A DNA stretch of 64,000 bases from a virus, in the IMG/VR virus record IMGVR_UViG_3300032579_000011, positions 14,899-78,898 of that record. One strand, written 5' to 3'. The first letter of the stretch is position 1. Each line of letters starts with the position of its first letter. This document shows positions 24,611-46,156 of the stretch, piece after piece. Made by a program: the position numbers and the translations under genes. The notes beneath the pieces were generated by a model, which was given only the letters and a program-made list of their open reading frames with translations, was not told the DNA's origin and made no database searches.

Positions 24611-24622
24611 ATAAAAATAGAC

Positions 24623-24638
24623 GCCCCCTTGGCGGAAT
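24623..24638 (+). pseudogene. 5' fragment of a tRNA-Leu-like gene
   Basis: GCCCCCTTGGCGGAAT resembles the 5' ends of the Leu tRNAs in this window; sits just after a promoter. Confidence 0.5.
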
Positions 24639-25263
24639 GATAAAATTGAAAAGAATAGCAGAAAATATAGAAACAACAGAATTATGTTCTTACGGATGTG
24701 GTAATATTGCTAGATTCAGAAATGGGTCTAATAAATTGATGTGCGAAATTAGAGCAACAAAATGTCCAGAAATTAGAAGAAAAAATAGTGAAGGTTCTAT
24801 AAAAGCGTATCAAAAATATAAAAACATTAACAGATATTTAAATACGTCAGAAGAATCTAAAAGAAAAATGAATTGGAACAAAGAAAAATATAATGCTGAT
24901 TTTTCTTATAATGGTAAAGGATCACACAAAAAAGTCTTAATAAAGGAACGAGGTTATAAATGTGAATCTTGTAATTTGTCAGAATGGTTAAACGAACCTA
25001 TACCTCTAGAATTGGAACATTGTGACGGTGATAATCTAAATAATATAAAAAATAATTTATTGTTATTATGTCCAAATTGTCATGCTAAAACAAAGTTTTA
25101 TAGAGGTAAAAACATAAATAATGGTAAAATGAAAGTTTCTGATGAAAAATTATTGACTTCTCTTAAAAAACATAGTAATATAAGACAAGCTTTACTCGAA
25201 GTTGGGTTAACACCCAAAGGTAAAAATTACGATAGAGCTTATAAATTATTAACGCCCGTGTAG
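24637..25263 (+). CDS. HNH endonuclease
   Basis: CESC...LELEHCDGDNLNN..NNLLLLCPNCH. Confidence 0.88.
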   Translation: MIKLKRIAENIETTELCSYGCGNIARFRNGSNKLMCEIRATKCPEIRRKNSEGSIKAYQKYKNINRYLNTSEESKRKMNWNKEKYNADFSYNGKGSHKKVLIKERGYKCESCNLSEWLNEPIPLELEHCDGDNLNNIKNNLLLLCPNCHAKTKFYRGKNINNGKMKVSDEKLLTSLKKHSNIRQALLEVGLTPKGKNYDRAYKLLTPV

Positions 25264-25332
25264 CCCAACAGGTTAGTAGGCAATTGACTTAAAATCAATA
25301 CAGTGTGGGTTCGAATCCCACCACGGGCACCA
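25254..25332 (+). tRNA. tRNA-Leu(TAA)
   Basis: GCCCGTG/CACGGGC acceptor, ATTGA-CTTAAAA-TCAAT, TTCGAAT, CCA. Confidence 0.9.
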
Positions 25333-25350
25333 ATTTCTGATCGGAGATAT

Positions 25351-25623
25351 ATGATGAAAGTTATGTTGGAATTGACACCCGAAGCCTTTAGTTCGCTTGA
25401 GGAAACTGTGCTAATCCAAAGTCTAGCAGATTCGGCAAGAACTCTTATCGAAGAGATAGATAGGTTCTTATCTAAGGAGTCGATTCGTCAACATGAAGTA
25501 AGAGACTTACAAGACGATATGATATATCTTGAATGTTTTAAGCGCGTTCTAGAGTATTATACAAGTGACGAACAACGTAAAACTGAGTTTGTTGATATTT
25601 TCGAAGGAGGTAATGATGAATAA
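25351..25623 (+). CDS. Hypothetical protein
   Basis: Start after tRNA at MMKVMLEL with GGAG RBS. Confidence 0.6.
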   Translation: MMKVMLELTPEAFSSLEETVLIQSLADSARTLIEEIDRFLSKESIRQHEVRDLQDDMIYLECFKRVLEYYTSDEQRKTEFVDIFEGGNDE

Positions 25624-25720
25624 GAAGGCACATAAGAAGTTGATTAAGATGCAGAATAAGTTTGGTAAAGATGCTGGTAAGGCTCTTTGGATTCTAATGA
25701 AGAAGAATGGAGAACTGTAA
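25616..25720 (+). CDS. Small basic hypothetical protein
   Basis: GGAGG RBS; MNKKAHKKLIKMQ... Confidence 0.5.
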   Translation: MNKKAHKKLIKMQNKFGKDAGKALWILMKKNGEL

Positions 25721-25721
25721 C

Positions 25722-25811
25722 ATGAGTCATCCGCATAAGAATCGCCCGCGTAAGGGTCGCCGTAAGGTTGGTTCTAAGAAGCGCAGGGCACGACGTAATC
25801 GTAAGAGGTAG
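25722..25811 (+). CDS. 29-aa Arg/Lys-rich peptide
   Basis: MSHPHKNRPRKGRRKVGSKKRRARRNRKR; GGAG RBS. Confidence 0.55.
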   Translation: MSHPHKNRPRKGRRKVGSKKRRARRNRKR

Positions 25812-25835
25812 TCTCTAATTTTTTAAAGGTGTAAA

Positions 25836-26324
25836 ATGAAAGAGTTTGATCTTAAGGAAGTAATTGATTTCATCAAGAATTCTTCTAACGAGACAAAGAT
25901 TTATATCGGCGCTGATTCCGAACGTTATCGTAAGAATGAGGTTTGGTATGCTGATTATACTGTGGCTGTTGTTGTTCATATTGATGGCAACAAGGGTTGT
26001 AAGGTATTTGGTAAGTCAGATGTAGAACGTGATTTTGATCAGAAGAAAGAAAAGCCAGCTTTTCGTCTGATGAACGAAGTTTATCGTGCTGCTCAGATGT
26101 ATATCGACCTTGCCGAAGCCATTGGTGATCGTCATTTCGAGTTGCACCTTGATATCAATCCAAACGAAATGCATGGTTCGTCTTGTGTTATCACACAGGC
26201 AACTGGTTATATTCGTGGTATGTGTGGTGTTACTCCAAAGGTTAAGCCAGAGGCACCAGCAGCTTCATTTTGTGCTGATCGTTTGAAGGAAATTCTAACG
26301 AACAACGAAAGTATTGCTGCTTAA
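25836..26324 (+). CDS. RNase H-like YkuK/DUF458 family protein
   Basis: IYIGADS, RLMNEV, LHLDINP, KP.A.AAS..AD. Confidence 0.8.
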   Translation: MKEFDLKEVIDFIKNSSNETKIYIGADSERYRKNEVWYADYTVAVVVHIDGNKGCKVFGKSDVERDFDQKKEKPAFRLMNEVYRAAQMYIDLAEAIGDRHFELHLDINPNEMHGSSCVITQATGYIRGMCGVTPKVKPEAPAASFCADRLKEILTNNESIAA

Positions 26325-26331
26325 ATAATAC

Positions 26332-26364
26332 AGGCGCGTAGCTTAAAGGTGAAGCCGGTCGCTC
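26332..26364 (+). pseudogene. 5' half of a tRNA truncated at the anticodon loop
   Basis: AGGCGCG-TA-GCTT-AAAGGTG-AAGC-C-GGTCG-CT then AT-rich DNA. Confidence 0.65.
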
Positions 26365-26415
26365 TTTAAAATTTAATTTTTATAAATACTTCTATAATTA
26401 ATAGGAGTATTTTAT

Positions 26416-27102
26416 ATGAAATGTAAATTCTGCAATCAATTAAAGAAAAATTTGAATTCTTTAAGAAATCATGAGAGACTATGTAAAGAAAATACAAATA
26501 AAGAAAAAACTTGGATTCAAAAACGAAAAGAAGCGGGAATAGAAATTAAATTTGATTTTCATCAATCGCCTGAATATAAAGAAAAACAAAGACAAAAAAG
26601 ATTATTGTGTCCTCCCGCTTCTTTAGAACAAAGACAAAAAGCTTCTATAAAAACAAAAGAATACTATTCTAATCCTGAAAATAGAAAAAAACATTCAAAA
26701 ATAATGAAAAAGGCGGTATTAGAACACCCAGAATCTTATTCTGATAAAAACATAGTTGGAAGATCAAAACATTTTACAATCGATGGTGTTAGATTTAATA
26801 GCACTTGGGAATATGAAGTTGCAAAATTTTTAGATAAAAATAATATTAAATGGATCAGAAGTAATATAAAACCAATTTCTTATTTTTGGAATGATGATTG
26901 GCATTTATATTTTCCAGATTTTTTAATTGAAGAATATAATTGTTATATTGAAGTAAAGGGATATGAAACAGATCGTGATAGGGCTAAATGGAGCCAATTA
27001 GATAAAAAAATATTAGTAATCAAACAAAAAGAAATTGACTTAATAAAAAAACAGAATTATGATATAATTAGTAAATTATCGTCCTATAGCTCAATCGGTT
27101 AG
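26416..27102 (+). CDS. PD-(D/E)XK (TnsA/Vsr-like) endonuclease with N-terminal zinc finger
   Basis: CKFC...LRNHERLC; STWE, YFPDF, YIEVKG; late promoter at 26381. Confidence 0.85.
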   Translation: MKCKFCNQLKKNLNSLRNHERLCKENTNKEKTWIQKRKEAGIEIKFDFHQSPEYKEKQRQKRLLCPPASLEQRQKASIKTKEYYSNPENRKKHSKIMKKAVLEHPESYSDKNIVGRSKHFTIDGVRFNSTWEYEVAKFLDKNNIKWIRSNIKPISYFWNDDWHLYFPDFLIEEYNCYIEVKGYETDRDRAKWSQLDKKILVIKQKEIDLIKKQNYDIISKLSSYSSIG

Positions 27103-27155
27103 AGCAGGCGCCTTATAAGCGTCAGATCTGGGTTCAATTCCCGGTAGGACAACCA
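27080..27155 (+). tRNA. tRNA-Ile(TAT)
   Basis: GTCCTA/TAGGAC acceptor with C1:A72 mismatch, GGCGC-CTTATAA-GCGTC, CCA. Confidence 0.85.
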
Positions 27156-27175
27156 CTATTTTGAAAGTCTACATC

Positions 27176-27544
27176 ATGAAATATTTGTATCTTTTGCCGA
27201 TTTTCTTTTTCCTTGGCGGCTGTCAAACTACAAATTCTTATCCTATAAATAAAATTACCGCTCAAAAAAGCGGTATTGTTGCCTCCTGGTATTCTTCTGG
27301 TCGAAGAACTGCCAGCGGTCAACATTTCGATCCAAATGGATATTCTGTCGCTCATCGTACCCTACCATTTGGAACTCAACTCAAACTGACTAATCCGAAT
27401 AATGGAAAGTCCATAGTTGCTATTGTCAATGACAGGGGTCCATTCGTAAGAGGGACGGGGTTGGACGTTACAAGAGGCGGTGCTCAAAAACTTGGTTTTA
27501 TTAGTCAAGGTAAAACTAGATTGATAATGGAAGTTTTGAGATAA
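27176..27544 (+). CDS. rlpA: RlpA-like (DPBB) lipoprotein
   Basis: LGGC lipobox; ASWY, TASG, AHRTLPFGT, VNDRGPF, LDVT. Confidence 0.88.
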   Translation: MKYLYLLPIFFFLGGCQTTNSYPINKITAQKSGIVASWYSSGRRTASGQHFDPNGYSVAHRTLPFGTQLKLTNPNNGKSIVAIVNDRGPFVRGTGLDVTRGGAQKLGFISQGKTRLIMEVLR

Positions 27545-27584
27545 TATATTTCTCTTAATAGCGACGTAAACAAAAGGAAAAGTA

Positions 27585-28226
27585 ATGAAAAAGCTTATAT
27601 TTTCACTAGTAGCAATGCTAGTTAGTATTGGCGTAGTTTCTACAGCTAATGCTAGACCAAGACATAAGAGACATCATTATCATCATGTTGTAGTATACAA
27701 GCATAAAAACAAAAAAGTGAATATGGTGATTGGTCAAAAACAAGAACCGCAAATATATTATTCGAATGATGACAATAGTCCAGCCGCATTTTTTGCGAAA
27801 GATAGAGCAAGAAATGTAGTTGAAACTCTTGATAATAACAAAAGAAAGACCCAAGAACATTTTGGGTTTATCGAACAGTCGATCAGACAAGGAAACGGTT
27901 TGGCTAATAAAGCATTAAGATATGTTGGTGCAACAGCTAGACAACTAGGACTTCCTCGTAGCCTTTGGTGTGCTGATTTCATGAATATGATCACACATTC
28001 TGGTAATGATCGAACTGCTATGTCATATAAACACAGGGGACAACCAGCATCTTATGGTTGTGTTAACTGTGTTGCCGTAACAACTCGTCGAGGCGGTGGT
28101 CACGTCGGGGTTGTTTCTGGTTATGATAAACATGGTAATCCTATTTTGATTTCGGGAAACCATGGCAGAAAAGTCGGTGTTGGTACTTATGCTAGAAGCA
28201 GAGTAGTAGCATACAGATATATATAA
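27585..28226 (+). CDS. Secreted CHAP/NlpC-like amidase (TIGR02594-like)
   Basis: Signal peptide; LWCADF, GGGHVGVV, ISGNH. Confidence 0.7.
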   Translation: MKKLIFSLVAMLVSIGVVSTANARPRHKRHHYHHVVVYKHKNKKVNMVIGQKQEPQIYYSNDDNSPAAFFAKDRARNVVETLDNNKRKTQEHFGFIEQSIRQGNGLANKALRYVGATARQLGLPRSLWCADFMNMITHSGNDRTAMSYKHRGQPASYGCVNCVAVTTRRGGGHVGVVSGYDKHGNPILISGNHGRKVGVGTYARSRVVAYRYI

Positions 28227-28227
28227 T

Positions 28228-28252
28228 GGGGTGGGAGAAATCCCACCCTTTT
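28228..28252 (+). terminator. Rho-independent terminator
   Basis: GGGTGGGA-GAAA-TCCCACCC-TTTT. Confidence 0.75.
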
Positions 28253-28267
28253 AATTTGGAGTTTGTT

Positions 28268-28456
28268 ATGACAACAGAAGAATTAGTTAAATCAGCTGAC
28301 CTTAATTGGTGCGTAGACATTCTTAAAAGAATAGAAAGTATAACTAACCGTTTTCCGAGCACTCAGAATGGTTATGCAGTCATAGATTATTCGGATATTG
28401 ACCAAATTAAATACCTTGTAAAAATGGGGCTAAAGGTGGTTAAAGAAGATGAATGA
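28268..28456 (+). CDS. Hypothetical protein
   Basis: MTTEELVK start with GGAG RBS. Confidence 0.5.
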   Translation: MTTEELVKSADLNWCVDILKRIESITNRFPSTQNGYAVIDYSDIDQIKYLVKMGLKVVKEDE

Positions 28457-28512
28457 CTTGACTTTTGAACCGTATCAGGTTATACTAAGTAAGGTTATGA
28501 AGGAGATATAAT

Positions 28513-28620
28513 ATGAAAAGCGATCTAGAACTGCTTGTTGAATATGATATGTTTATTTTGGGATTTGATTCCTCAAATTCTGAGGATATTAAGAAATATT
28601 GGGAGATTATGCTAGGATGA
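28513..28620 (+). CDS. Small hypothetical protein
   Basis: AAGGAG RBS after TTGACT promoter; stop overlaps glutaredoxin start. Confidence 0.55.
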   Translation: MKSDLELLVEYDMFILGFDSSNSEDIKKYWEIMLG

Positions 28621-28880
28621 ACGTTACAATATATACTAAATCGAATTGTAAATTCTGCGTTAATTCTAAGATGCTACTTAGCTCTAAAGGAATTAATTAT
28701 ACAGAACTAAAGTTAGACGAAGATTTTTCTAGAGAAAGCCTTTTGGAAATTTTTCCGAACGCGAAATCTTTTCCTGTTGTTGTTATAGATGGTTTCAACA
28801 TTGGCGGGTTTGAAAATCTTAAAAAGTATCTAACTGAAGAAACACAGGATAATCGTAAACTTTTGAATGAGGGAATTTAA
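28617..28880 (+). CDS. Glutaredoxin
   Basis: IYTKSNCKFC, SFPVV, IGGF. Confidence 0.9.
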   Translation: MNVTIYTKSNCKFCVNSKMLLSSKGINYTELKLDEDFSRESLLEIFPNAKSFPVVVIDGFNIGGFENLKKYLTEETQDNRKLLNEGI

Positions 28881-29145
28881 TATGATTAATCGCGACGATC
28901 TTTTGAACGATCTACGTATGTACGTGATTGAAGTTCAGTTTAATAAAGTTAACGGCGAACAGCGCACAATGCGTTGTACTCTAAGGCCTGATCTTTTGCC
29001 TCCAAAGTATAATATCAATGAAGATCATAAATTTCATAGGGAAAATACCGACGTTATTGCTGTTTGGGATATCCTTAACAACGGTTGGCGTTCTTTCCGT
29101 GTAGATTCCGTAACTTACGTTCAGAACGTGAGCCACAATTACTGA
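28867..29145 (+). CDS. DUF2693/WYL-like SH3-fold protein
   Basis: FNKVNGEQRTMRCTL, VWD..NNGWRSFR. Confidence 0.75.
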   Translation: MREFNMINRDDLLNDLRMYVIEVQFNKVNGEQRTMRCTLRPDLLPPKYNINEDHKFHRENTDVIAVWDILNNGWRSFRVDSVTYVQNVSHNY

Positions 29146-29152
29146 GGATAAA

Positions 29153-29437
29153 ATGAAAAAGTTGGTTATAGTCGAATGCATATCTCAACACCGTATTCGT
29201 TATTGTGTTGAGGTTGAAGATAATATTGATCCTGCTCTTGATGAAGTCGTTAGAGAAAGTGACGCTGAAAATTTTCATGAGTTTAGTCAGCAACATCTCG
29301 GCCAAGTGATCTTTTCTCATAGAGAAATAAATAAAGAAGAATACCTTCGTATGTTCGATGAAGATAGTCCTTATCTAAAGGGATGGCCTGAAGAACAAAA
29401 ACTTAAATACATCAACAGGATTAATTATGATGCATGA
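29153..29437 (+). CDS. Hypothetical protein
   Basis: ORF with GAGGA RBS. Confidence 0.65.
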   Translation: MKKLVIVECISQHRIRYCVEVEDNIDPALDEVVRESDAENFHEFSQQHLGQVIFSHREINKEEYLRMFDEDSPYLKGWPEEQKLKYINRINYDA

Positions 29438-29873
29438 TGTTATTGTTGATATCGACGGCACCATAGCCGACAATTCCCATAGAGTTCACCATATCCGTAA
29501 GTCTCCCAAAGATTGGAAGTCTTATGAAAAGGGTGTCATGGAAGACGAGCCGCATTTTGACATCATCTATATTCTAGAATCACTTAAAGCTTCTGGTTCG
29601 AAGCTGGTACTCTGTACAGGAAGAATGGAAAACGAGCGAGACGACACCATTAATTGGTTGAGAATGCATTATCTAGACTTTCTTTTTGACAAGCTTTATA
29701 TGCGACCACTCAATGATTATAGATCGGATGATGTTGTTAAGAAAGAACTTCTTGACCAGATTCGTAAAGACGGTTATAATCCGACAATAGTATTTGAAGA
29801 TCGTCAACGTGTTGTTGATATGTGGAGAACAGAAGGTCTTCGTTGTTTGCAAGTCCAGCCGGGCGATTTTTAA
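29427..29873 (+). CDS. PseT-like 3' phosphatase (HAD) domain
   Basis: DIDGTIA, TGR, MRP..DYRSD..VK, FEDRQRVVDMWR..GL.C.QV..GDF. Confidence 0.85.
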   Translation: MMHDVIVDIDGTIADNSHRVHHIRKSPKDWKSYEKGVMEDEPHFDIIYILESLKASGSKLVLCTGRMENERDDTINWLRMHYLDFLFDKLYMRPLNDYRSDDVVKKELLDQIRKDGYNPTIVFEDRQRVVDMWRTEGLRCLQVQPGDF

Positions 29874-29938
29874 TAAATAGTTGTGTCAGTCGCGGAGTAC
29901 CAGTCCCACTGACTCTATGTCAAACGAAGGACACAGCT

Positions 29939-30546
29939 ATGAATATTTATCACGTTTATGCGTATCTTAGAGAAGAAAACAATACACCATATTATATTGG
30001 TAAAGGTAAGGGTAGAAGAGCTTATAAAAACATACAATAAGCGTTCCAAAAAATAAATCAAAAATTATATTTTATCATAAAAATATAACTAATGAAACCG
30101 CTTGTTTTTTGGAAAAATCTTACATAAAATTATTTGGTAGAAAAGATATTGGAAATGGTATATTATACAATCAAACGGATGGCGGCGATGGCGGCGACAC
30201 TTCTAAGAGCGAAAATTATATAAAAGCTAAGACGGAAGGTAAATTTAATGGTCATCGTCATAAAACTTCAGAACAATTAGAAAAAGCTAACATAAAACGT
30301 TCTGTTTCATTATTAGGACATGAAGTATCTTTAGAAACTAAAAAGAAAATTTCAGAAACTAGAAAAAATAAAAAGATACCTAGTCCAAATAAAGGAAAAA
30401 CATTCTCCGAAAACATAAAAGAAAAACTTCGTATTCCTAAAAAGAAATATATTTGTTTTGTTTGTTCAAAAAACATCGGAGGAAAAACAAATCTAATTAG
30501 ATGGCATAATGAAAACTGTAAAATGAAAGGAAATATAAATGAATGA
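29939..30546 (+). pseudogene. Frameshifted GIY-YIG-type homing endonuclease
   Basis: VYAYLRE...PYYIGKG in one frame, FGRKDIGNGILYNQTDGGDG in another; adding one A at 30026-30030 restores the frame. Confidence 0.8.
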
Positions 30547-30913
30547 TAAATCTTATTGGGGCTATAGCTTACTTTTGGATTGTGCCGAACTCGATCACGG
30601 CGCGATCACGAGTTATGAAAATATTTACAATTTCACTAAGAGACTAGTCAAGGATATCGATATGGTCGCTTACGGCGAGCCGCAGATCGTTGAATTTGGT
30701 TCTGGTAATAAGGCTGGCTATACTTTGGTCCAGCTTATTGAAACATCGAATATTTGTGCTCATTTTGTTCCTGATGACGGAAATGGTGGTAACGCACTTT
30801 ACCTCGATGTTTTTTCATGTAAGGAATATGATGATCAAGTGGTAATCAATTTGGTTAAGGAATTCTTTGGTGCTAAGTATATTAGACCAAACTATTTGAC
30901 GAGACAGGCGTGA
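30539..30913 (+). CDS. speD: S-adenosylmethionine decarboxylase proenzyme
   Basis: GYTLVQLIETSNICAHF, YLDVFSCKEY. Confidence 0.8.
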   Translation: MNDKSYWGYSLLLDCAELDHGAITSYENIYNFTKRLVKDIDMVAYGEPQIVEFGSGNKAGYTLVQLIETSNICAHFVPDDGNGGNALYLDVFSCKEYDDQVVINLVKEFFGAKYIRPNYLTRQA

Positions 30914-31894: not shown

Positions 31895-31895
31895 A

Positions 31896-35609: not shown

Positions 35610-35613
35610 AATT

Positions 35614-37052: not shown

Positions 37053-37054
37053 AT

Positions 37055-37297: not shown

Positions 37298-37308
37298 TCA
37301 GGATAAAA

Positions 37309-39050: not shown

Positions 39051-39124
39051 AAAAAATACTCCGGAATGCGCTCCCGGAGTATTTATCTTCGTATTTTAAA
39101 TGATGTATTAAAGTAACAATTTCA

Positions 39125-39481: not shown

Positions 39482-40041
39482 TTAGATTCTCCTATATATT
39501 GTTGATAAATTTTTTGTTCTGTTGGGTCTAATTCTTGACCATCTTTTAATTTTTGAATAATCACCATCATTTCAGCGTCCATCGGCGTTGTGTTTTTACC
39601 TAAAAACACCAAAATATCCAATATTTTTAAAACTGGTGCTGATAGAGGAACAAATGGCGAAATAAGTTTAGCTATATCGTCTATTAATGAACTACCAGCA
39701 AGAAATGGGTTGTTTCCCATTAATGCATCTTTTATGCCTTTCCAATCTATTCCTTCTGCTATTAGAATAGACTGAATAATTTTCTTAATATCTAATTTTT
39801 CAGAATTTGATTTTGGATAACTGTCGGCAAATCCAGCCAACATTTTAATTACTGCCTCGGCAACATTTGCTTGAGGAACAAAAGGTTTTGCAATTTCAAA
39901 AGCATCTTCCAAAGAAACAACACCTAATCCTAACCAATCTGAATTTTGAAATTTTTGACGTAATTCAAACCAATTAAGATTAGATGCAATTTGAATAGCG
40001 TTTTTTAAATTCGCTATTGTTTGATCGTCTATATTAATCAT
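39478..40041 (-). CDS. Hypothetical protein with internal duplication
   Basis: Two similar halves (NLNW...IAKPFVP / GIDW...ISPFVP). Confidence 0.6.
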   Translation of the reverse strand: MINIDDQTIANLKNAIQIASNLNWFELRQKFQNSDWLGLGVVSLEDAFEIAKPFVPQANVAEAVIKMLAGFADSYPKSNSEKLDIKKIIQSILIAEGIDWKGIKDALMGNNPFLAGSSLIDDIAKLISPFVPLSAPVLKILDILVFLGKNTTPMDAEMMVIIQKLKDGQELDPTEQKIYQQYIGESK

Positions 40042-40247
40042 TTACTTGCTGGAGTTTCAGGCATAACAATAGCTAGAAGTCCGCCAACAGCAACACCAAC
40101 AGCAATTATACTATCTCCCAAAGCACCGGGGAATAATGTATGTATTGATACTGCCACTAGTCCGCCGCCAGCCCATGTGCTAGGCTCTTTAACTCTATCT
40201 GCTACCCATACAAGTGCTTTAATAACTTTATCCATTATAACCTCCAT
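40038..40247 (-). CDS. Small holin-like membrane protein
   Basis: RVKEPSTWAG followed by two hydrophobic segments; late promoter at 40274-40281. Confidence 0.6.
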   Translation of the reverse strand: MEVIMDKVIKALVWVADRVKEPSTWAGGGLVAVSIHTLFPGALGDSIIAVGVAVGGLLAIVMPETPASK

Positions 40248-40294
40248 ATTTTTATTACCCAAAGGGCCATTCTTATTTATAAAATATGGATATT

Positions 40295-40322
40295 AAAAAA
40301 GGGCGGGGATGAACCCACCCTT
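40295..40322 (-). terminator. Rho-independent terminator after DUF2828-type gene
   Basis: AAGGGTGGG-TTCATC-CCCGCCCTT-TTTT on minus strand. Confidence 0.8.
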
Positions 40323-40332
40323 AATTAGAAAT

Positions 40333-41766
40333 TTAGAAGTCGTAGCGATCAGACATTAATGTCTTAAGCATGATCGCCTCCGGAGTAAAGTCCTCCAAAT
40401 CAGCAGCCAACACCGACTTAACGATAGTTGGAGAGAAACCAGAAACAAGAGCAACGCCTCGTTCATCGAACTTAACAGGCACATTTTCATGTGCATTCAA
40501 GTTCCAGAAAACGATGTTAGGCATATTGTAAGCATGATAGATATACTTACGAGCAATCATTTCCATAGCAGAGTCATCGTGAGTAGTGCACTGATCAAAC
40601 TGCATGTCCGAAAGAATCAGCAGCATTGCAGGCATTTCTGACTGAGGAACATTACCTTCAATTGCAGTGAGAAGGATTTTATCCAGCGCGAGATGCAGGT
40701 TAGTGTTCATGTCCCACTTCGAAGTTACCATCTGCTTAACCTTATCGAGGATGTTACCACGAAGATGAAGCAGCTCAGGCTTGCCAGAGAAAGTCAAGAA
40801 CGTATCCTTAAACTTACCAGTGTTCTTTTCAGCAAGGTAAAGACCAAGAGAAACAGAAACGTCAAGGCAAGTTACCTTCGACTTGGAGTTATAGCCACCA
40901 GCAGGTGAAGTCATTGAACCAGAAACGTCAACGAGCGGAAGGATGTTTGCATCACCAACAAAGTTAGGAAGATCATCCCACTGAGCACGAATGTGATCGA
41001 GGTTCGACTGATTATATGACGCATTGTAACCGTAAGGAGAAACACCCTTCAGCACATCATACGGATAAACCGCACCAGCATTGACCTTGACAGTCTTTGC
41101 TACTTCAGGATCCTTCGAAACAAGAGCAGTAGTCCACTCCTTATACTTCTCAGTGTGACGTGAGAAAGCCTTCTTATATCTAGAAGAAGCAAGCGAAGGA
41201 ACATGGTTGAAATTAATTTCATCCCAATTCTTAGCGCACATGTCCTGCTCAACAACCTTGGTCAAGCTAACCAGTGTCTTACGATACTGCTTAGGTGACA
41301 TTCCAAGGAACGAACGAAGTTCAGCGGCTTCCTTACCCTTACGTGGCATCCACTTAGCAGCAAGACCATTCTTGGCTTCAAGAGCATCACGAACCATCGC
41401 AAATGCGATCTGACGCAAATCACCCTTGGTAACAAAGATATCGTCCCAACGTCCAAGCTCGGGAACACGCTTCAAAAGACGCTCCGCATATGCAGGATCA
41501 TGATCACAAGCATATTCTAGAATATCCCGGAAAATCTTACGCTCACCAGCGCCTCCGCGAATATCACGCGCCCAAAGAACAACACGGCCAGCCAATTCCT
41601 TATCTTGAACATAAGCTGCCGTAAAGTCAGGAATTACGTTCTTACCGCGAGATGCACCAATCTTATAGAAAAGATCAGTAACTGAATTGGCAGTAGACTT
41701 ACGAGCCTTCATACCATTAGTAGTACGAGCAGTCTGGTTCTTAACGGCATTAACAAATGTTGACAT
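40333..41766 (-). CDS. DUF2828-type TROVE-like/vWA protein (Ro60-related architecture)
   Basis: RDIRGGAGER, GRWDD, AAKWMPR, VPSLA; vWA MIDAS DVSGSM, TN, SDMQFD, VFWNL, SGFSP. Confidence 0.82.
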   Translation of the reverse strand: MSTFVNAVKNQTARTTNGMKARKSTANSVTDLFYKIGASRGKNVIPDFTAAYVQDKELAGRVVLWARDIRGGAGERKIFRDILEYACDHDPAYAERLLKRVPELGRWDDIFVTKGDLRQIAFAMVRDALEAKNGLAAKWMPRKGKEAAELRSFLGMSPKQYRKTLVSLTKVVEQDMCAKNWDEINFNHVPSLASSRYKKAFSRHTEKYKEWTTALVSKDPEVAKTVKVNAGAVYPYDVLKGVSPYGYNASYNQSNLDHIRAQWDDLPNFVGDANILPLVDVSGSMTSPAGGYNSKSKVTCLDVSVSLGLYLAEKNTGKFKDTFLTFSGKPELLHLRGNILDKVKQMVTSKWDMNTNLHLALDKILLTAIEGNVPQSEMPAMLLILSDMQFDQCTTHDDSAMEMIARKYIYHAYNMPNIVFWNLNAHENVPVKFDERGVALVSGFSPTIVKSVLAADLEDFTPEAIMLKTLMSDRYDF

Positions 41767-41787
41767 TTCACTTCTCCTTTGTTATCA

Positions 41788-41845
41788 ACAGATTGAACTT
41801 TTTTCTATTTTGCATATAGATTTTATTATTGCTGAACTCAATCTT
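41788..41845 (-). ncRNA. CAGCA-motif RNA unit 3 with Cys(GCA) anticodon-loop mimic
   Basis: AGATTGA/TCAATCT stem, TTCAGCAA, TCTAT-ATGCAAA-ATAGA. Confidence 0.65.
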
Positions 41846-41851
41846 AATTAA

Positions 41852-41917
41852 ACAGTATCACTTTTTGCTTTTTTTGATTACAAGTCAAATGCATTTTGGA
41901 TTGCTGAAATGATACTT
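41852..41917 (-). ncRNA. CAGCA-motif RNA unit 2 with Thr(TGT) anticodon-loop mimic
   Basis: AGTATCA/TGATACT stem, TTCAGCAA, TTTGA-CTTGTAA-TCAAA. Confidence 0.7.
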
Positions 41918-41924
41918 AAACTTA

Positions 41925-42145
41925 TCAGGTTAGTCGCGGTATTGTGGTCCACCATCCTCCGAAGAGGTTCAGGTTATTACGAGTAACCCCGAAGGATTCT
42001 CGACCACCCAGTGTTCATCAAAGTTCCCCCATCTTTCGATGGCTAAATCTCAGAAGGAAAGTCAAGCTTTCCAGAAGATGCCTCTAATCACTGCCTTCGC
42101 TGTTATCGCGATTTCAAACATAGGTTGTGTGCTGTATCTAACCTT
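41925..42145 (-). ncRNA. CAGCA-motif RNA unit 1 (about 220 nt, multi-hairpin)
   Basis: AGGTTAG/CTAACCT stem, TACAGCAC, GAAA and two TTCG tetraloop hairpins. Confidence 0.7.
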
Positions 42146-42159
42146 AATTCTTATCATTT

Positions 42160-42188
42160 ATAATACCGCGACTTAAGTTAAAAGTCAA
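42160..42188 (-). promoter_or_regulatory. sigma70-like promoter for ncRNA array and DUF2828-type gene
   Basis: TTGACT-N17-TATTAT. Confidence 0.7.
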
Positions 42189-42198
42189 GTAGTATTTT

Positions 42199-42272
42199 TG
42201 GTGCTTCTGCGTGGAATCAAACCACGGTAGATCGATTATCAGTCGATTATTCTATCATTGAATTACAGAAGC
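42199..42272 (-). tRNA. tRNA-Ile(GAT)
   Basis: ATCGA-CTGATAA-TCGAT; CCA; atypical D and T loops. Confidence 0.8.
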
Positions 42273-42278
42273 ATTAAA

Positions 42279-42301
42279 TGGTGCCGGATGAGAGATTCGA
42301 A
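42279..42301 (-). pseudogene. 3' fragment of a broken tRNA
   Basis: TTCGAATCTCTCATCCGGCACCA; acceptor complementary to the 5' fragment at 42540-42567. Confidence 0.7.
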
Positions 42302-42304
42302 CCG

Positions 42305-42453
42305 CCTAAAATCTCATTTATTATATTTAGACCCTAAAAACGAATATCTTATAAAGACAGATATTAATAAAATTATAAATGCATCAAACCAAAACAATAT
42401 ATATGTAATTGTTATTGGCAAAAAACACATTAATTTAGAGTCAATTAAAGAAA
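42305..42453 (+). pseudogene. Remnant of PD-(D/E)XK endonuclease C-terminus
   Basis: LYLDPKNEYLI...KI...NQN.I.V matches IYLDPKNDYLI...KINKVCDQNKIKV of 45392-46027. Confidence 0.65.
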
Positions 42454-42527
42454 TGGTAGGGGATAGAGGTAACGCTCCTCTTCTTCCTGCTTGTAAAACA
42501 GGCACTCTACTTTTAAGTTAATCCCCC
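42454..42527 (-). tRNA. tRNA-Val(TAC)
   Basis: CCTGT-TTTACAA-GCAGG; atypical T loop AGCGTTA; CCA. Confidence 0.75.
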
Positions 42528-42539
42528 AAAATTATTTTA

Positions 42540-42567
42540 GGTTGCTCTACCTCTGTGCTAATCCGGC
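42540..42567 (-). pseudogene. 5' fragment of a broken tRNA
   Basis: GCCGGATTAGCACAGAGGTAGAGCAACC. Confidence 0.7.
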
Positions 42568-42571
42568 GTAT

Positions 42572-42648
42572 TGGCGCGACGGAAGGGAGTCGAACCCTCA
42601 TTGCCCTGATTGAAAGTCAGGTTTCCTAGGCCGTTAGAAGACCGTCGC
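42572..42648 (-). tRNA. tRNA-Glu(TTC)
   Basis: CCTGA-CTTTCAA-TCAGG; CCA. Confidence 0.88.
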
Positions 42649-42652
42649 ATAA

Positions 42653-42742
42653 TGGCGGAAAGGGTGAGATTCGAACTCACGGAACCCTTTCAGGTTCGCT
42701 AGTTTTCAAGACTAGAGCCATCAACCACTCGGCCACCTTTCC
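42653..42742 (-). tRNA. tRNA-Ser(TGA)
   Basis: CTAGT-CTTGAAA-ACTAG; long variable arm; G73 CCA. Confidence 0.92.
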
Positions 42743-42794
42743 ATTATTCTTTATATAGTATATTCTAAGACTTGTTTAAAGTCAAGCATTATTT

Positions 42795-42870
42795 TGGCAC
42801 CCCGTCAAGGACTCGAACCCTGCTCTTCGGTTTTGGAGACCGAAACATCGCCCCTAAATGCTTACGAGGT
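42795..42870 (-). tRNA. tRNA-Trp(CCA)
   Basis: TCGGT-CTCCAAA-ACCGA; CCA. Confidence 0.85.
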
Positions 42871-42887
42871 ATTGTTTCTATTTATAA

Positions 42888-42977
42888 TGGCGGAGAGTGA
42901 GAGATTCGAACTCTCGGTAGAGTTTCCCCTACGTCTCGTTAGCAGTGAGGTGCCTTAGACCGCTCGGCCAACTCTCC
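42888..42977 (-). tRNA. tRNA-Ser(GCT)
   Basis: CTGCTAA loop, long variable arm; two mismatches in anticodon stem. Confidence 0.82.
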
Positions 42978-42982
42978 ATTAA

Positions 42983-43058
42983 TGGAGCTTCCCCACGGAA
43001 TCAAACCGTATCCTCACGTTCTTCAGACGCACGTGCACATCAGTTACACCAGAGAAGC
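42983..43058 (-). tRNA. tRNA-Phe(GAA)
   Basis: TGCGT-CTGAAGA-ACGTG; CCA. Confidence 0.78.
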
Positions 43059-43066
43059 ATTAAATT

Positions 43067-43142
43067 TGGATCGGGGAGCAGGGGTCGAACCTGCAGTCTT
43101 ACGGAGTCAAAGGCCGAGATGTTACCATTACACCATCCCCGA
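43067..43142 (-). tRNA. tRNA-Gln(TTG)
   Basis: U1-A72 acceptor TCGGGGA/TCCCCGA; CTTTGAC loop; weak anticodon stem. Confidence 0.7.
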
Positions 43143-43155
43143 ACAATTCTTAATT

Positions 43156-43233
43156 TGGTGCCGAGTGGTGGGCGTCGAACCCACTTTAATCAGGATATGA
43201 ATCTGATGCGATAGCCAATACCGCCCCATCGGC
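43156..43233 (-). tRNA. tRNA-Met/Ile2(CAT)
   Basis: TCAGA-TTCATAT-CCTGA; bulged acceptor; CCA. Confidence 0.7.
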
Positions 43234-43248
43234 ATTATTTGTATTTAG

Positions 43249-43324
43249 TGGTACCCGCTCTTGGATTCGAACCAAGTCTACCTGATCCACAATCAAGTGT
43301 GCTGACCAACAACACTAAGCGAGC
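43249..43324 (-). tRNA. tRNA-His(GTG), no G-1, A73
   Basis: CTTGA-TTGTGGA-TCAGG; ends ...GGGT-A-CCA. Confidence 0.85.
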
Positions 43325-43329
43325 ATAAT

Positions 43330-43406
43330 TGGTGCCCATGGTAGGACTCGAACCTACAAAACTCGGAGTTTGAAGCCGATACGTATACCAATTCCGTCAC
43401 AAGGGC
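43330..43406 (-). tRNA. tRNA-Leu(CAA)
   Basis: TTCAAAC loop; short variable region; A73 CCA. Confidence 0.8.
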
Positions 43407-43407
43407 T

Positions 43408-43483
43408 TGGCGCTGTTTGAGAGGATCGAACTCCCGACATCCTGATTACTAAACAGGTGCTCTACCAACTGAGCTAAAACAGC
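43408..43483 (-). tRNA. tRNA-Thr(AGT)
   Basis: Canonical D and T arms; CCTGT-TTAGTAA-TCAGG. Confidence 0.82.
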
Positions 43484-43490
43484 ATTATAA

Positions 43491-43571
43491 TGGTGCGCCT
43501 GGCAAGACTTGAACTTGCACCCGAAGACCAGTTTCTAAGACTGGCGTGTCTACCTATTCCACCACAAGCGC
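43491..43571 (-). tRNA. tRNA-Leu(TAG)
   Basis: CCAGT-CTTAGAA-ACTGG; CCA. Confidence 0.88.
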
Positions 43572-44066
43572 AGATTTTCTTTTTCTCCATGTCATTGTAA
43601 ATGAATGGCAATTTGGGCAAAGACCTTCTAAATTATTTCTATCGTTATTATTCGTATTGCCATCTTTATGTTCTAATTCAAGTTTTATGGGTTGACCTAA
43701 CCACTCAAATATTCCACAGTTATTACATTTAAAGTTTTGTTCTTCAAAAACTCTTCTTCTTTTTTGACCAGAACTAAGATCTTCAAACATTTTTGACAAA
43801 TACAAATTTTCTCTTTTCTTTTTTACTTTTTCTGATATACGGTTTCTAGTTTCTTCATTTATTGCGGAAAGGCGTTTTTCAATATGTTCTTGACTTTGTT
43901 TCTTTCCTTTATTGGATGGAGATCTTCCAATTAATTTTTCACTAACTTTTAAATTAATTTCTTTTCTTTTTGAGAAAGTAGAAAAAGCCGAAGCACATTT
44001 TTTACAACAAAATCTTCCAGAACCATATTCACCTGAATGAGTTTCTTTACAATATTCACATAACAT
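43554..44066 (-). CDS. HNH endonuclease
   Basis: CNNC...LELEHKDGNTNNN.RNNLEGLCPNCH; late promoter at 44100-44107. Confidence 0.88.
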   Translation of the reverse strand: MLCEYCKETHSGEYGSGRFCCKKCASAFSTFSKRKEINLKVSEKLIGRSPSNKGKKQSQEHIEKRLSAINEETRNRISEKVKKKRENLYLSKMFEDLSSGQKRRRVFEEQNFKCNNCGIFEWLGQPIKLELEHKDGNTNNNDRNNLEGLCPNCHSFTMTWRKRKSALVVE

Positions 44067-44123
44067 TTTTGAACCTCCAAAGTAACTTTTATATAAAGTT
44101 ATTTATAAAAGTTCGTTTTTCAG

Positions 44124-44198
44124 TGGAGCGTCGAGCGGGAATCGAACCCGCATCTCTTGGTTGGAAGCCAAGAATAATAACCACTATACTACCGACGC
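44124..44198 (-). tRNA. tRNA-Gly(TCC)
   Basis: CTTGG-CTTCCAA-CCAAG; U73 CCA. Confidence 0.9.
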
Positions 44199-44199
44199 G

Positions 44200-44270
44200 A
44201 GCGGGGAACGAGAATCGAACTCGTACGATTACCTTGGCAAGGTAACAGGCTACCACTACATCACCCCCGC
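44200..44270 (-). tRNA. tRNA-Gly(GCC), no encoded CCA
   Basis: TTACC-TTGCCAA-GGTAA; abuts tRNA-Gly(TCC). Confidence 0.8.
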
Positions 44271-44347
44271 ATACTGCTGCTCCGATTCGAACGGCGTTAT
44301 TCTCTTGTCGAAATAGTGTTTCCCATCAACACCGACAGCAATTTAAA

Positions 44348-44424
44348 TGGAGGTCAGTGAAGGACTCAAACCCTCAACCTTCGCGTTCGTAGCGCGATGC
44401 TCTATTCAGTTGAGCTAACTGACC
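44348..44424 (-). tRNA. tRNA-Arg(ACG)
   Basis: TCGCG-CTACGAA-CGCGA; CCA. Confidence 0.88.
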
Positions 44425-44725
44425 TTTTTCTTTTATTTTTTATTTTTTTCGTAGCTTTCCAAAGCTGTACCCCACTTTTTTCAAGTTTATGAATTTCATT
44501 ATGACAATTTCTACAGACAGGAACTAAATCTATACCTATATGTTCATTTCCAAGACGTTTATATGTTCTATGATGTAAATCTAATGGGACGTTAGACGCT
44601 TGGCAACAATAACAATTCCATTTTCCTTCGCCTTTTATTTGTTTATATAAATTTGAAGAGTAGAAATCTTTTCTCTTTTTTTGCCATTCTTTTGAATTGA
44701 TATAATCATAATATTTCATATACAA
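44402..44725 (-). CDS. Small HNH endonuclease
   Basis: SKEWQKKR, CYCC, LDLHHRTY, LVPVCRNCH..IH. Confidence 0.82.
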   Translation of the reverse strand: MYMKYYDYINSKEWQKKRKDFYSSNLYKQIKGEGKWNCYCCQASNVPLDLHHRTYKRLGNEHIGIDLVPVCRNCHNEIHKLEKSGVQLWKATKKIKNKRKRSVSSTE

Positions 44726-44734
44726 GACTTTCTA

Positions 44735-44809
44735 TGGAGGTGCCTCCCAGAATCGAACTGGGTTCTCAAGGTTTTGCAGACCTGTGCATTGCCATCCTAC
44801 TCAGGCACC
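44735..44809 (-). tRNA. tRNA-Cys(GCA)
   Basis: CTGCAAA loop; U73 CCA. Confidence 0.85.
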
Positions 44810-45007
44810 AATATATTCTATTCTTGGATCACTAGGAGTTGGTTGACCATACCATATGGTTGTATCCATTTCCATAATACGATAGATGCGATATTCTGGA
44901 TAATTTTGTTCAAATAAATTGAAGACATCATTAACAATTTCGACATTACGAACAACACGAGTATGTTGTTTCATATCATAATTATATTGAACGATTACGT
45001 CAGTCAT
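44801..45007 (-). CDS. Hypothetical protein (68 aa)
   Basis: AAGGA RBS, MTDVIVQY start; stop lies inside tRNA-Cys. Confidence 0.55.
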   Translation of the reverse strand: MTDVIVQYNYDMKQHTRVVRNVEIVNDVFNLFEQNYPEYRIYRIMEMDTTIWYGQPTPSDPRIEYIGA

Positions 45008-45023
45008 ATCAAAATCCTTTAAT

Positions 45024-45099
45024 TGGCTGGGGATCAAGGACTCGAACCTCGGACATCCAGATTCAGAGTCTGGCGTTCTACCAACTGAACTAATCCCCA
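45024..45099 (-). tRNA. tRNA-Gln(CTG)
   Basis: CCAGA-CTCTGAA-TCTGG; U1-A72; CCA. Confidence 0.9.
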
Positions 45100-45105
45100 A
45101 TATAA

Positions 45106-45179
45106 TGGCGATCCTAAAGGGACTCGAACCCTCCTTTACCCGTAGACAGCGGGTAGCCTTCCCTGACGGCAATAGGACC
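45106..45179 (-). tRNA. tRNA-Asp(GTC)
   Basis: ACCCG-CTGTCTA-CGGGT; G73 CCA. Confidence 0.85.
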
Positions 45180-45186
45180 ATTAATT

Positions 45187-45259
45187 TGGTTGCGGTCGCT
45201 GGTGACGCTCCAGTTCTCTAGCTTATGAGGCTAGCATGGCACTTTTCCACTACCCCGCA
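45187..45259 (-). tRNA. tRNA-Met(CAT), degenerate
   Basis: CTAGC-CTCATAA-GCTAG; acceptor mismatches; T loop AGCGTCA. Confidence 0.6.
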
Positions 45260-45324
45260 ATAAAATTTATCTAGCAAACAACAAAATCCATTGTACTCGC
45301 ATCATTTTTTGTTTCCTTTTAATA

Positions 45325-45401
45325 TGGTGCTGAAGAAAGGACTCGAACCCTCAACCTTCGCATTACAAGTGCGCTGCTCTACCAATTAAAGCTACTTCAG
45401 C
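45325..45401 (-). tRNA. tRNA-Thr(TGT)
   Basis: CTTGTAA loop; CCA. Confidence 0.88.
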
Positions 45402-46027
45402 AATTTAATTATTTCATTCCAACATAGTTGGTTCTTATTCAAGATTAACACTTTAATCTTATTTTGATCACAAACTTTATTTATTTTTTCTTCATCAGAA
45501 AATCCTAAACTGGGATTATTGTTATTGATCAAATAATCGTTTTTTGGGTCCAAATATATATTATAATCAATCAAATACATATCTGGAGTATATGTTCTAT
45601 GCTTACCATTTCTATCAACATAATTAAATTTTTTACAAGTATCCCATCTTATATTATTCTCGTCTAATGATTGTGCAACAATCAATTCATATGTTGAACC
45701 AAGAATTTTATCTTTATATCTTATTCTTCTAGATTGTGAAACGCCACCCAATCCTCTTTCTTTAGCAAGCTTACTCATCTTTATTTTTACAGATTCTGTT
45801 TGACCTCTTTTTCGATTTGTATCAGCTATTCTTTCTAAAGCTTCTTTGGATATTTTAGGTTTTTGTAAACCTAATTCTTTAGCCTTTTTATATTGATTAG
45901 AATGTTTTCTGATGCTAAAATCATAAATTCTAATTTTACGATCGGGATTTAATTTACACATTCTTTGATGATTTCTCAAAGAATTATTATTTTTACATTC
46001 TTTATTACAAAAAGTACAAAGTAGCAT
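45392..46027 (-). CDS. PD-(D/E)XK endonuclease with N-terminal zinc finger (paralog of 26416-27102)
   Basis: CTFC...LRNHQRMC; STYE, YTPDM, YLDPKN; late promoter at 46055-46062. Confidence 0.82.
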   Translation of the reverse strand: MLLCTFCNKECKNNNSLRNHQRMCKLNPDRKIRIYDFSIRKHSNQYKKAKELGLQKPKISKEALERIADTNRKRGQTESVKIKMSKLAKERGLGGVSQSRRIRYKDKILGSTYELIVAQSLDENNIRWDTCKKFNYVDRNGKHRTYTPDMYLIDYNIYLDPKNDYLINNNNPSLGFSDEEKINKVCDQNKIKVLILNKNQLCWNEIIKLLK

Positions 46028-46153: not shown

Positions 46154-46156
46154 AAT

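Follow-up and report, generated by a model that had tools for sequence, protein, structure and literature searches.

Why should a phage nuclease gene end inside the tRNA gene that follows it? The question is raised by a 64,000-nucleotide (nt) stretch of viral DNA, positions 14,899 to 78,898 of the IMG/VR record IMGVR_UViG_3300032579_000011 (hereafter the window), which belongs to an uncultured phage from lake-water metagenomes. Three HNH and two PD-(D/E)XK nuclease open reading frames (ORFs) in this window, and one further ORF of 68 amino acids (aa), terminate on a stop codon that falls between positions 7 and 23 of the tRNA following on the same strand. With moderate confidence, we suggest that these overlaps are modules of a homing endonuclease and a tRNA, joined without a spacer, in which the nuclease gene borrows a stop triplet from conserved tRNA positions. 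The five nuclease ORFs would be free-standing homing-endonuclease genes from an HNH family and an I-Bth0305I-like PD-(D/E)XK family, both specialized on tRNA arrays; each gene would dock on a specific tRNA gene at its 5' end, and the two would be inherited and exchanged as a single module.

Nuclease genes that end inside a tRNA

The 5' ends of the tRNAs were called with ARAGORN and with the Rfam model RF00005, while stop codons were taken from the ORF table and from the sequence itself. ARAGORN finds 26 tRNA genes in the window, to which Rfam adds two. For the six partner tRNAs, the two programs place the 5' end at the identical nucleotide (25254, 27080, 43571, 44424, 44809 and 45401), and their Rfam scores of 44-65 bits lie in the range of ordinary tRNAs; all six partners look intact. 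A preliminary description of this DNA had claimed that five endonuclease ORFs stop inside the downstream tRNA and that the small ORF preceding tRNA-Cys does likewise, and every one of its coordinates was borne out by both tRNA finders, the ORF table and the sequence. Since all 26 anticodons found by ARAGORN are unique in the genome, each partner tRNA is the only copy that the phage has. The sole ORF-to-tRNA junction in the window that does not overlap is that of a methyltransferase gene, which has its own stop 12 nt ahead of tRNA-Asn (46578-46656), a tRNA in which none of the frames meets a stop ahead of position 40.

Table 1. Coordinates of the overlapping genes, their partner tRNAs and associated sequence features in the window.
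Feature	Position	Strand	Details and basis
HNH-A ORF, 208 aa	24637-25263	+	TAG = tRNA-Leu(UAA) positions 8-10
tRNA-Leu(UAA), sole gene for this anticodon in the genome	25254-25332	+	ARAGORN; Rfam 64.5 bits
First PD-(D/E)XK ORF, 228 aa	26416-27102	+	TAG = tRNA-Ile(UAU) positions 21-23
tRNA-Ile(UAU), sole gene for this anticodon, C1-A72 mismatch atop the acceptor stem	27080-27155	+	ARAGORN; Rfam 65.3 bits
HNH-B ORF, 170 aa	43554-44066	-	TAG = tRNA-Leu(UAG) positions 16-18
tRNA-Leu(UAG), long-arm allele	43491-43571	-	ARAGORN; Rfam 60 bits
HNH-C ORF, 107 aa from TTG 44725 or 105 aa from ATG 44719	44402-44725	-	TAG = tRNA-Arg(ACG) positions 21-23
tRNA-Arg(ACG), HNH-C-linked allele	44348-44424	-	ARAGORN; Rfam 60.2 bits
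68-aa ORF, no assigned family	44801-45007	-	TGA = tRNA-Cys positions 7-9
tRNA-Cys(GCA)	44735-44809	-	ARAGORN; Rfam 44.5 bits
Second PD-(D/E)XK ORF, 211 aa	45392-46027	-	TAG = tRNA-Thr(UGU) positions 8-10
tRNA-Thr(UGU)	45325-45401	-	ARAGORN; Rfam 60.6 bits
Exchanged block: spacer, HNH-B and tRNA-Leu(UAG), 625 nt	43499-44123	-	blastn, L294 vs window
Methyltransferase ORF, sole non-overlapping ORF-to-tRNA junction	46669-47253	-	Pfam PF13578, E 2e-18
Sigma-70-like promoter motif TTGACT-N17-TAGTAT, upstream of HNH-A	24582-24610	+	Consensus match only
Piece of 16 nt like the first 16 nt of tRNA-Leu, running into the HNH-A ATG	24621-24636	+	Read by eye; tentative
Promoter-like site inside the HNH-A ORF	25153-25181	+	Consensus match only
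5' half of a tRNA with acceptor strand, D arm and 5' anticodon stem, interrupted within the anticodon loop and lying ahead of the first PD-(D/E)XK ORF	26332-26364	+	Read by eye
TATAAATA motif, with the start codon of the first PD-(D/E)XK ORF 28 nt downstream	26381-26388	+	Sequence match
Promoter-like TTGACT-N17-TATGAT within the first PD-(D/E)XK ORF, ending 17 nt before tRNA-Ile	27035-27063	+	Consensus match only

The preliminary description had also held that two nuclease families, HNH and PD-(D/E)XK, take part in these overlaps, and matches to PHROGs, invariant catalytic residues and a fold match all agree with it. Three of the window ORFs match HNH families in PHROGs and two match phrog_15137, annotated as 'endonuclease'. 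HNH-A matches phrog_14736 (E 1.7e-28) and phrog_10822, HNH-B matches phrog_10822 (E 6.5e-20) and is 48% identical to HNH-A across the HNH motif, and HNH-C has hits to several HNH PHROGs, the best of them at E 3.6e-7. In the HNH alignment (A4), residues C109, C112, H128, N140, C145, C148 and H149 are invariant (CxxC, H, N, CxxCH), so that the window HNH ORFs possess the catalytic His/Asn and the paired CxxC zinc ligands of the class. Pfam yielded just one HNH_3 match, below the cut-off, across the six overlapping ORFs.

The first PD-(D/E)XK ORF, which has an N-terminal CxxC..H..C finger, matches phrog_15137 with an E-value of 1.4e-28; the second matches the same family (E 1.1e-9), is 30% identical to the first and contains a PD..DPK motif. 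In an alignment of ten phrog_15137 sequences, E132, P167, D168 and K181 are invariant (E..PD..(D/E)xK). Searches of the PDB at the sequence level with this first ORF and with HNH-A returned nothing useful. An AlphaFold2 model of the first ORF has a mean predicted local distance difference test (pLDDT) score of 81, and in Foldseek its top match is the catalytic domain of I-Bth0305I (3r3p; probability 1.0, target template-modelling (TM) score 0.67-0.69), followed by Bax1, Vsr and T7 endonuclease I, each of which likewise has a PD-(D/E)XK fold. The family thus combines the catalytic residues of the PD-(D/E)XK class with a restriction-endonuclease-like fold, the fold being that of a predicted model. 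The 68-aa ORF has no match in PHROGs; its homologues are found at 82-100% identity in related contigs.

Partner tRNAs, spacing and exchange in related phages

The link to tRNA arrays extends to both families as a whole. Profile-guided retrieval from IMG/VR gave 71 unique complete homologues of the PD-(D/E)XK proteins, and for 58 of them a tRNA on the same strand lies no more than 1.5 kb away. The tRNA 5' end falls between -15 and +45 of the stop in 39 homologues, with 21 genes overlapping the tRNA and 18 adjacent to it, and the partner among these 39 is most often tRNA-Met(CAU) (23), followed by tRNA-Asn(GUU) (8) and tRNA-Ile(UAU) (3). Overlap tracks the identity of the partner: it is found at 15 of 23 junctions with tRNA-Met(CAU) vs none of 8 with tRNA-Asn (p=0.002), and about half of the tight junctions of this family retain their own stop 0-12 nt ahead of the tRNA. 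Judging from these sequences, the position of the stop, just before or just inside the tRNA, is set by what the tRNA sequence offers. Across the same 39 divergent homologues, 138-197 nt separate the PD motif from tRNA +1 (median 152 nt for overlapping and 158.5 nt for adjacent pairs), while the C-terminal tails encoded by the tRNAs are unconserved in the ten-sequence alignment. With the distance near-fixed and the tail unconserved, the tRNA therefore starts straight after the last codon that the protein needs.

The HNH family behaves in a similar way, as same-strand tRNAs are near 56 of 70 homologues and 14 of the 20 tight junctions overlap, including all eight with tRNA-Leu(UAA) and both with tRNA-Leu(UAG); tRNA-Leu is the main partner and is overlapped every time. 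The nearest non-identical relatives of HNH-A (56% identity; loci L216, L217, L221 and L227) seemed by ARAGORN to lack a tRNA. Their HNH genes in fact run into a tRNA-Leu whose anticodon loop is interrupted by a group I intron, and they terminate in the D loop of its 5' exon, at positions 16-18 (RF00028, 53-66 bits; L216 1317-1510, L217 1512-1710, L221 954-1148, L227 2135-2320). A search of the window for such an intron with RF00028 gave no match, and the window partner tRNAs are continuous. Both nuclease families thus reside almost exclusively in tRNA arrays and have preferences among tRNAs, the HNH family for tRNA-Leu and the PD-(D/E)XK family for tRNA-Met/Ile(CAU/UAU) and tRNA-Asn.

Based on this arrangement, we suggest that the nuclease ORF would occupy the entire spacer between two tRNAs, so that its last needed codon abuts +1 of the next one. 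An ORF without its own stop would then use the first in-frame triplet that the tRNA supplies, either U8-A9-G10 or a TAG of the D stem or loop, and where the tRNA lacks an early stop, as tRNA-Asn does, the same type of gene would retain a stop of its own, placed a few bases ahead of +1. The window nucleases themselves are predicted to be active in homing.

Exchange of such a module can be followed in close relatives of the phage, which were retrieved via the small 68-aa ORF. The phage has no close cultured relative, since a megablast search against GenBank phages matched one 75-nt tRNA only. In blastn comparison, the contig L294 matches the window at 98.5-99.5% identity on either side and differs in exactly one block: the 625 nt that comprise the spacer, HNH-B and tRNA-Leu(UAG) are replaced by 430 nt with a different HNH gene and a different, short-arm tRNA-Leu(UAG). 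The L294 HNH protein has 102 aa, shares its PHROG with HNH-B while being 41% identical to it, and ends at positions 8-10 of its tRNA. Two further relatives (L295 and L299) are without HNH-B and HNH-C; their array reads Cys-Gly-Arg-Gly-Leu, the tRNAs lying 0-5 nt from one another, and its tRNA-Leu(UAG) is short-arm, where that of the window is long-arm. Presence and absence at one site among close genomes is therefore seen for HNH-B and HNH-C, the genes that this comparison covers, the PD-(D/E)XK genes lying outside it. The tRNA-Thr, tRNA-Arg and tRNA-Leu that are linked to nucleases in the window are clearly different alleles from the tRNAs of relatives without those nuclease genes, and tRNA-Arg(ACG) differs in array position from that in relatives without HNH-C. 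The single-block swap in L294 and these allele differences support the view, put forward in the preliminary description, that the overlap locks nuclease and tRNA together.

The overlap of the 68-aa ORF with tRNA-Cys is kept in L295, L298 and L299. In two more distant contigs (L300 and L301, near 5190-5260; 82-87% identity) the tRNA-Cys following the small ORF is without part of the D arm and is not called by ARAGORN, and the small ORF ends on a TAA within this tRNA-Cys remnant.

Some family members also have remains of a tRNA upstream of the nuclease gene, in the form of 5' halves broken in the anticodon loop. With a home-made hidden Markov model of the tRNA 5' half, nhmmer gives significant matches for L018 (E 3e-5) and L003 (E 1e-4) and for no others; those in L004 and L007 were read by eye only. 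An ATAAATA motif comes after these halves. The fragment upstream of the first PD-(D/E)XK ORF of the window (Table 1) shares 15 of 17 D-arm bases with the L004 tRNA-Met.

A number of points weigh against reading these overlaps as homing modules. The remnants ahead of the two plus-strand nuclease genes, which would point to insertion into a resident tRNA, were read by eye; Rfam searches in truncated mode of 26320-26366 and 24600-24637 found no tRNA fragment, and as the remnants were not confirmed in this way, insertion into a broken tRNA is tentative for the window. The swap of a module is demonstrated at one site only, that of HNH-B with tRNA-Leu. In addition, the partner tRNA in L294 is essentially the resident allele, which implies that a nuclease gene can insert alone before an existing tRNA and that joint travel is not obligatory. 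Finally, the constant spacing fits selection for mRNA 3' ends defined by ribonuclease P (RNase P) equally well.

Overlap frequency and rival explanations

The frequency of the ORF-tRNA overlap can be set against that between ordinary genes. In the window, overlaps of any length occur at 32 of 78 same-strand gene-to-gene junctions, those of 1-11 nt being routine. Overlaps of at least 9 nt are found at 6 of 7 ORF-to-tRNA junctions vs at most 15 of 78 gene-to-gene junctions (Fisher p=7e-4), the latter figure being an upper bound because the start of the longest ORF was taken. TAG is the rarest stop codon in the window, and 5 of the 12 TAG stops belong to the five nuclease ORFs (p=1.6e-5). All six stops in the window lie at or before tRNA position 24, yet this has a chance expectation of (2/3)^6 = 0.09, and we make no claim from it.

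A wider base rate comes from a survey of 80 IMG/VR loci with 468 tRNAs, drawn solely by a generic tRNA T-arm pattern. Junctions were counted between an ORF of at least 90 aa and a tRNA, with ORFs termed adjacent when the stop lies 0-60 nt upstream and tight when it lies within 20 nt. The survey contains 17 unique ORFs that overlap a tRNA and 39 that are adjacent, 27 of those within 20 nt. Roughly one third of ORF-to-tRNA junctions in these viral contigs overlap (0.30-0.39), and the 6 of 7 in the window exceed this rate (binomial p=0.004-0.016). The comparison of overlap frequencies that the preliminary description had called for thus shows an excess, both within the window and against the survey. 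When the 468 tRNAs are read in random frames, a stop is met at position 10 (U8-A9-G10) in 20% and by position 24 in 41%; the surveyed overlaps favor early tRNA stops, with 12 of 17 ending at or before position 24 (p=0.014 against random frames). A gap of 6 nt is strikingly common before tRNAs (9 of 27 tight junctions; loci L015-L094), and three GIY-YIG-like genes in the survey are all adjacent, with gaps of 0, 1 and 6 nt, and none overlapping. The overlap is thus not due to chance, yet it is common to phage tRNA arrays and not peculiar to this genome.

The overlaps could in principle be an artefact, with ORFs that are decayed or not translated as far as the listed stop, or with misplaced tRNA 5' ends. 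Pfam finds almost nothing in these ORFs and several have weak Shine-Dalgarno sequences, as such an artefact would predict. Nonetheless, two independent tRNA finders concur on the 5' end of every one of the six tRNAs, the ORFs span the full length of their families and have intact catalytic residues, the model of the first PD-(D/E)XK ORF folds with a mean pLDDT of 81, and the same layout is found in dozens of contigs that are unrelated to each other as well as in the curated record of phage T5. Tool agreement and conservation largely refute this explanation, and we regard it as extremely improbable. Pure compaction followed by drift is a more serious contender, if still an improbable one: stops ahead of the tRNA would have been lost neutrally, with the tRNA acting as a back-up stop and the overlap having no meaning for mobility or regulation. 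The routine overlaps between genes in this genome and the abundance of stop triplets in tRNA 5' parts are in line with it, as is the tendency in the survey for overlap to be more frequent in frames with an early tRNA stop (12 of 22 vs 5 of 22, p=0.06). Drift does not, however, account for the excess of overlaps of at least 9 nt over gene-to-gene junctions, and it leaves unexplained the near-constant distance from catalytic motif to +1 in 39 divergent homologues with differing tRNAs, the family-specific partner tRNAs and the swap of a whole block of nuclease and tRNA.

What happens to the stop codon once the tRNA matures is a separate matter. RNase P cleaves at tRNA +1, and transfer-messenger RNA (tmRNA) rescues ribosomes from non-stop mRNAs; cleavage at +1 together with this rescue would lead to a low nuclease output from processed co-transcripts. 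The nuclease mRNA would lose either its stop or, where it has its own, the protection of its 3' end (12 nt or less after the stop), and little protein would be made. An alternative to the module reading takes this as the purpose of the arrangement: the stop would lie deliberately within the tRNA, so that cutting at +1 leaves a non-stop mRNA whose product is tagged via tmRNA, and a toxic nuclease is held at trace level. Given the geometry, loss of the stop is unavoidable for any co-transcript that RNase P cuts. ORF and tRNA lie on one strand with no terminator between them, and genes with their own stop would keep just 0-12 nt beyond it after the cut. Nuclease gene and tRNA may be co-transcribed; a single metatranscriptome contig of 175 nt covers 45293-45467, the 3' end of the second PD-(D/E)XK gene and tRNA-Thr, with no mismatch, which is a weak hint of co-transcription as carry-over of DNA is possible. 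(Joints between tRNAs in Logan contigs, with sides of less than 32 nt, probably come from other organisms and were left unused.) Nucleases are also enriched in the wide survey set, making up 9 of 17 overlapping vs 8 of 39 adjacent ORFs (p=0.026), and specialists have put forward the same idea for segB and T5 F-TflI/II (PMC2330249).

Set against this, genes other than those of nucleases overlap as well: the 68-aa ORF, the T5 genes T5.057 and T5.069 and 8 of the 17 overlapping survey ORFs, which have no nuclease match, enter a tRNA too. The enrichment for nucleases is not significant when the survey overlaps are compared with tight junctions only (p=0.20), and own and borrowed stops coexist in one family, following tRNA identity and hence the availability of a stop. 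The promoter-like sites within HNH-A and the first PD-(D/E)XK ORF (from 25153 and 27035) suggest that the tRNA could be transcribed without the nuclease mRNA, and together with TATAAATA upstream they hint that tRNA and nuclease gene may be transcribed separately. We therefore consider a dedicated regulatory purpose possible yet unlikely. Because non-nuclease ORFs overlap as well, both stop states occur in one family and the enrichment vanishes among tight junctions, we regard gating by RNase P and tmRNA as a plausible consequence of the geometry rather than its purpose, and retain the homing module as our preferred explanation of the overlaps themselves.

The wider array, precedents and significance

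The TTGACT-N17 promoter motif found ahead of HNH-A likewise precedes tRNAs at 42785 and 42188 on the minus strand. The motif TATAAATA is also located upstream of nuclease genes at 44107-44100 and 46062-46055, and is weakly enriched over the whole window (15 matches vs 8.9 expected, equalled in 4 of 100 shuffles); the TATAAATA/ATAAATA motif lies 10-35 nt before the start codon in these three window nuclease genes and in about 30 of the 71 PD-(D/E)XK homologues, in unrelated contigs (L134-L213). These motifs resemble the T4 late promoter.

A few other features of the tRNA array should be mentioned. The two tRNAs found by Rfam and missed by ARAGORN lie on the minus strand at 42457-42527 and 48074-48154 (50.2 and 41 bits); the anticodon loop of the first resembles that of Val(UAC), and its T loop, AGCGTTA, is unusual. 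Spacers at 45190-45262 and 44272-44345, also on the minus strand, contain tRNA-like sequences called neither by ARAGORN nor by Rfam (E<=0.1); in the former spacer, the anticodon loop reads CTCATAA (CAU) and the T loop AGCGTCA. From anticodon stem to T arm, tRNA-Thr(UGU) (45337-45381) and tRNA-Arg(ACG) (44360-44404) on the minus strand are ~84% identical, which suggests a shared origin of, or recombination between, these two partner tRNAs. The 470 nt between tRNA-Ala and the second PD-(D/E)XK gene (46028-46498, minus strand) contain only a 43-aa ORF, are richer in G+C and possibly structured, and have no match in Rfam. At 42283-42566 on the minus strand, a sequence like the 5' part of a tRNA (GCCGGATTAGCACAGAGGTAGAGC...) is ~230 nt away from a 3' acceptor strand that pairs with it and ends in CCA (...ATCCGGCACCA). 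The interval is occupied by the tRNA that only Rfam calls and by an A+T-rich stretch, so that the two parts may belong to one tRNA that has been disrupted or split.

The overlap is already on record for T5, and the idea that tRNA maturation removes the stop for T5 and T4 segB, so that what is new here is the evidence at the level of families; we found no systematic treatment of overlaps between coding sequences and tRNAs in the literature searched. The T5 hegC and hegD genes are, like those of the window, free-standing HNH genes in a phage tRNA array whose coding sequence enters the next tRNA on the same strand. The T5 record AY543070 annotates overlaps of 23 nt for hegD/F-TflII with tRNA-Gln2, 14 nt for hegC/F-TflI with tRNA-Ser2, 24 nt for T5.069 with tRNA-Asn and 6 nt for T5.057 with tRNA-Met, and hegD shares phrog_14736 with HNH-A. 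T5 differs in that it belongs to a coliphage lineage and has two such nuclease genes, compared to five from two folds in the window, and in that the hegD partner tRNA-Gln2 is marked as a pseudogene, whereas the window partners look intact.

T4 SegB is likewise a free-standing homing endonuclease encoded between tRNA genes, directly upstream of tRNA-Arg; its homing of the tRNA region is proven and its association with tRNAs across phages is published (PMC2330249; PMC13096335). In contrast to the window genes, its fold is GIY-YIG, the gene as annotated stops 5 nt short of tRNA-Arg and so does not overlap it, and it is without a preference among tRNA isotypes (PMC13096335). In the Discussion of the 2008 study, maturation of tRNA-Arg was proposed to cut the segB mRNA between the last sense codon and the stop, and the authors suggested that such cutting lowers expression, likewise for T5 F-TflI/II/IV (PMC2330249). 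The association of SegB with tRNAs and the amplification of tRNAs that it drives were documented in 2026, in a study that mentions neither the overlap nor RNase P (PMC13096335).

Other systems offer partial parallels. I-Bth0305I is a PD-(D/E)XK, Vsr-like enzyme that is encoded by an intron in a protein-coding gene. As the best structural match, this enzyme of the Bacillus phage 0305phi8-36 (PDB 3r3p) has the same type of catalytic core as the model of the first PD-(D/E)XK protein, although similarity in sequence is undetectable and the window family is free-standing and docked on tRNAs. In collaborative homing, a free-standing endonuclease is encoded beside a group I intron that has no ORF, as with F-CphI and the psbA intron of cyanophage S-PM2. 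The relatives of HNH-A that lie upstream of an intron-bearing tRNA-Leu resemble this arrangement, unlike the window, where the intron is absent from the RF00028 search. In animal mitochondria, excision of tRNAs defines the 3' ends of mRNAs, and incomplete stop codons are completed by polyadenylation. Here too, excision of the neighboring tRNA would set the 3' end of the mRNA and affect the stop codon; in the window, however, the stop that the cut takes away would be a complete one, and bacteria are not known to restore stops in a comparable manner.

To these precedents the present analysis adds the tRNA preferences, the fixed spacing, the swap of a module and the relatives whose partner tRNA bears an intron. 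Two further nuclease families, HNH and I-Bth0305I-like PD-(D/E)XK, are seen to be confined almost wholly to tRNA arrays, to be choosy about their tRNA and to leave no spacer before it; taken together, the findings on these families provide a concrete picture of how single tRNA genes swap between phages. For annotation, overlaps of 7-40 nt between coding sequences and tRNAs in phage tRNA arrays should be taken as real, and trimming them is unwarranted. Phage tRNA arrays have been linked to counter-defence, as SegB amplifies tRNA genes to beat the Septu system (PMC13096335). We speculate, while regarding it as doubtful on present evidence, that nuclease ORFs which lack a stop of their own and dock at a set distance from tRNA +1 make up a general class of genes whose mRNA 3' ends are made by RNase P and whose output is set by the balance of translation against tRNA maturation and ribosome rescue, and that modules of nuclease and tRNA are the main vehicle by which phages exchange and replace single tRNA genes. 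If they are, this would have a bearing on how phages escape host defences that cut tRNAs.

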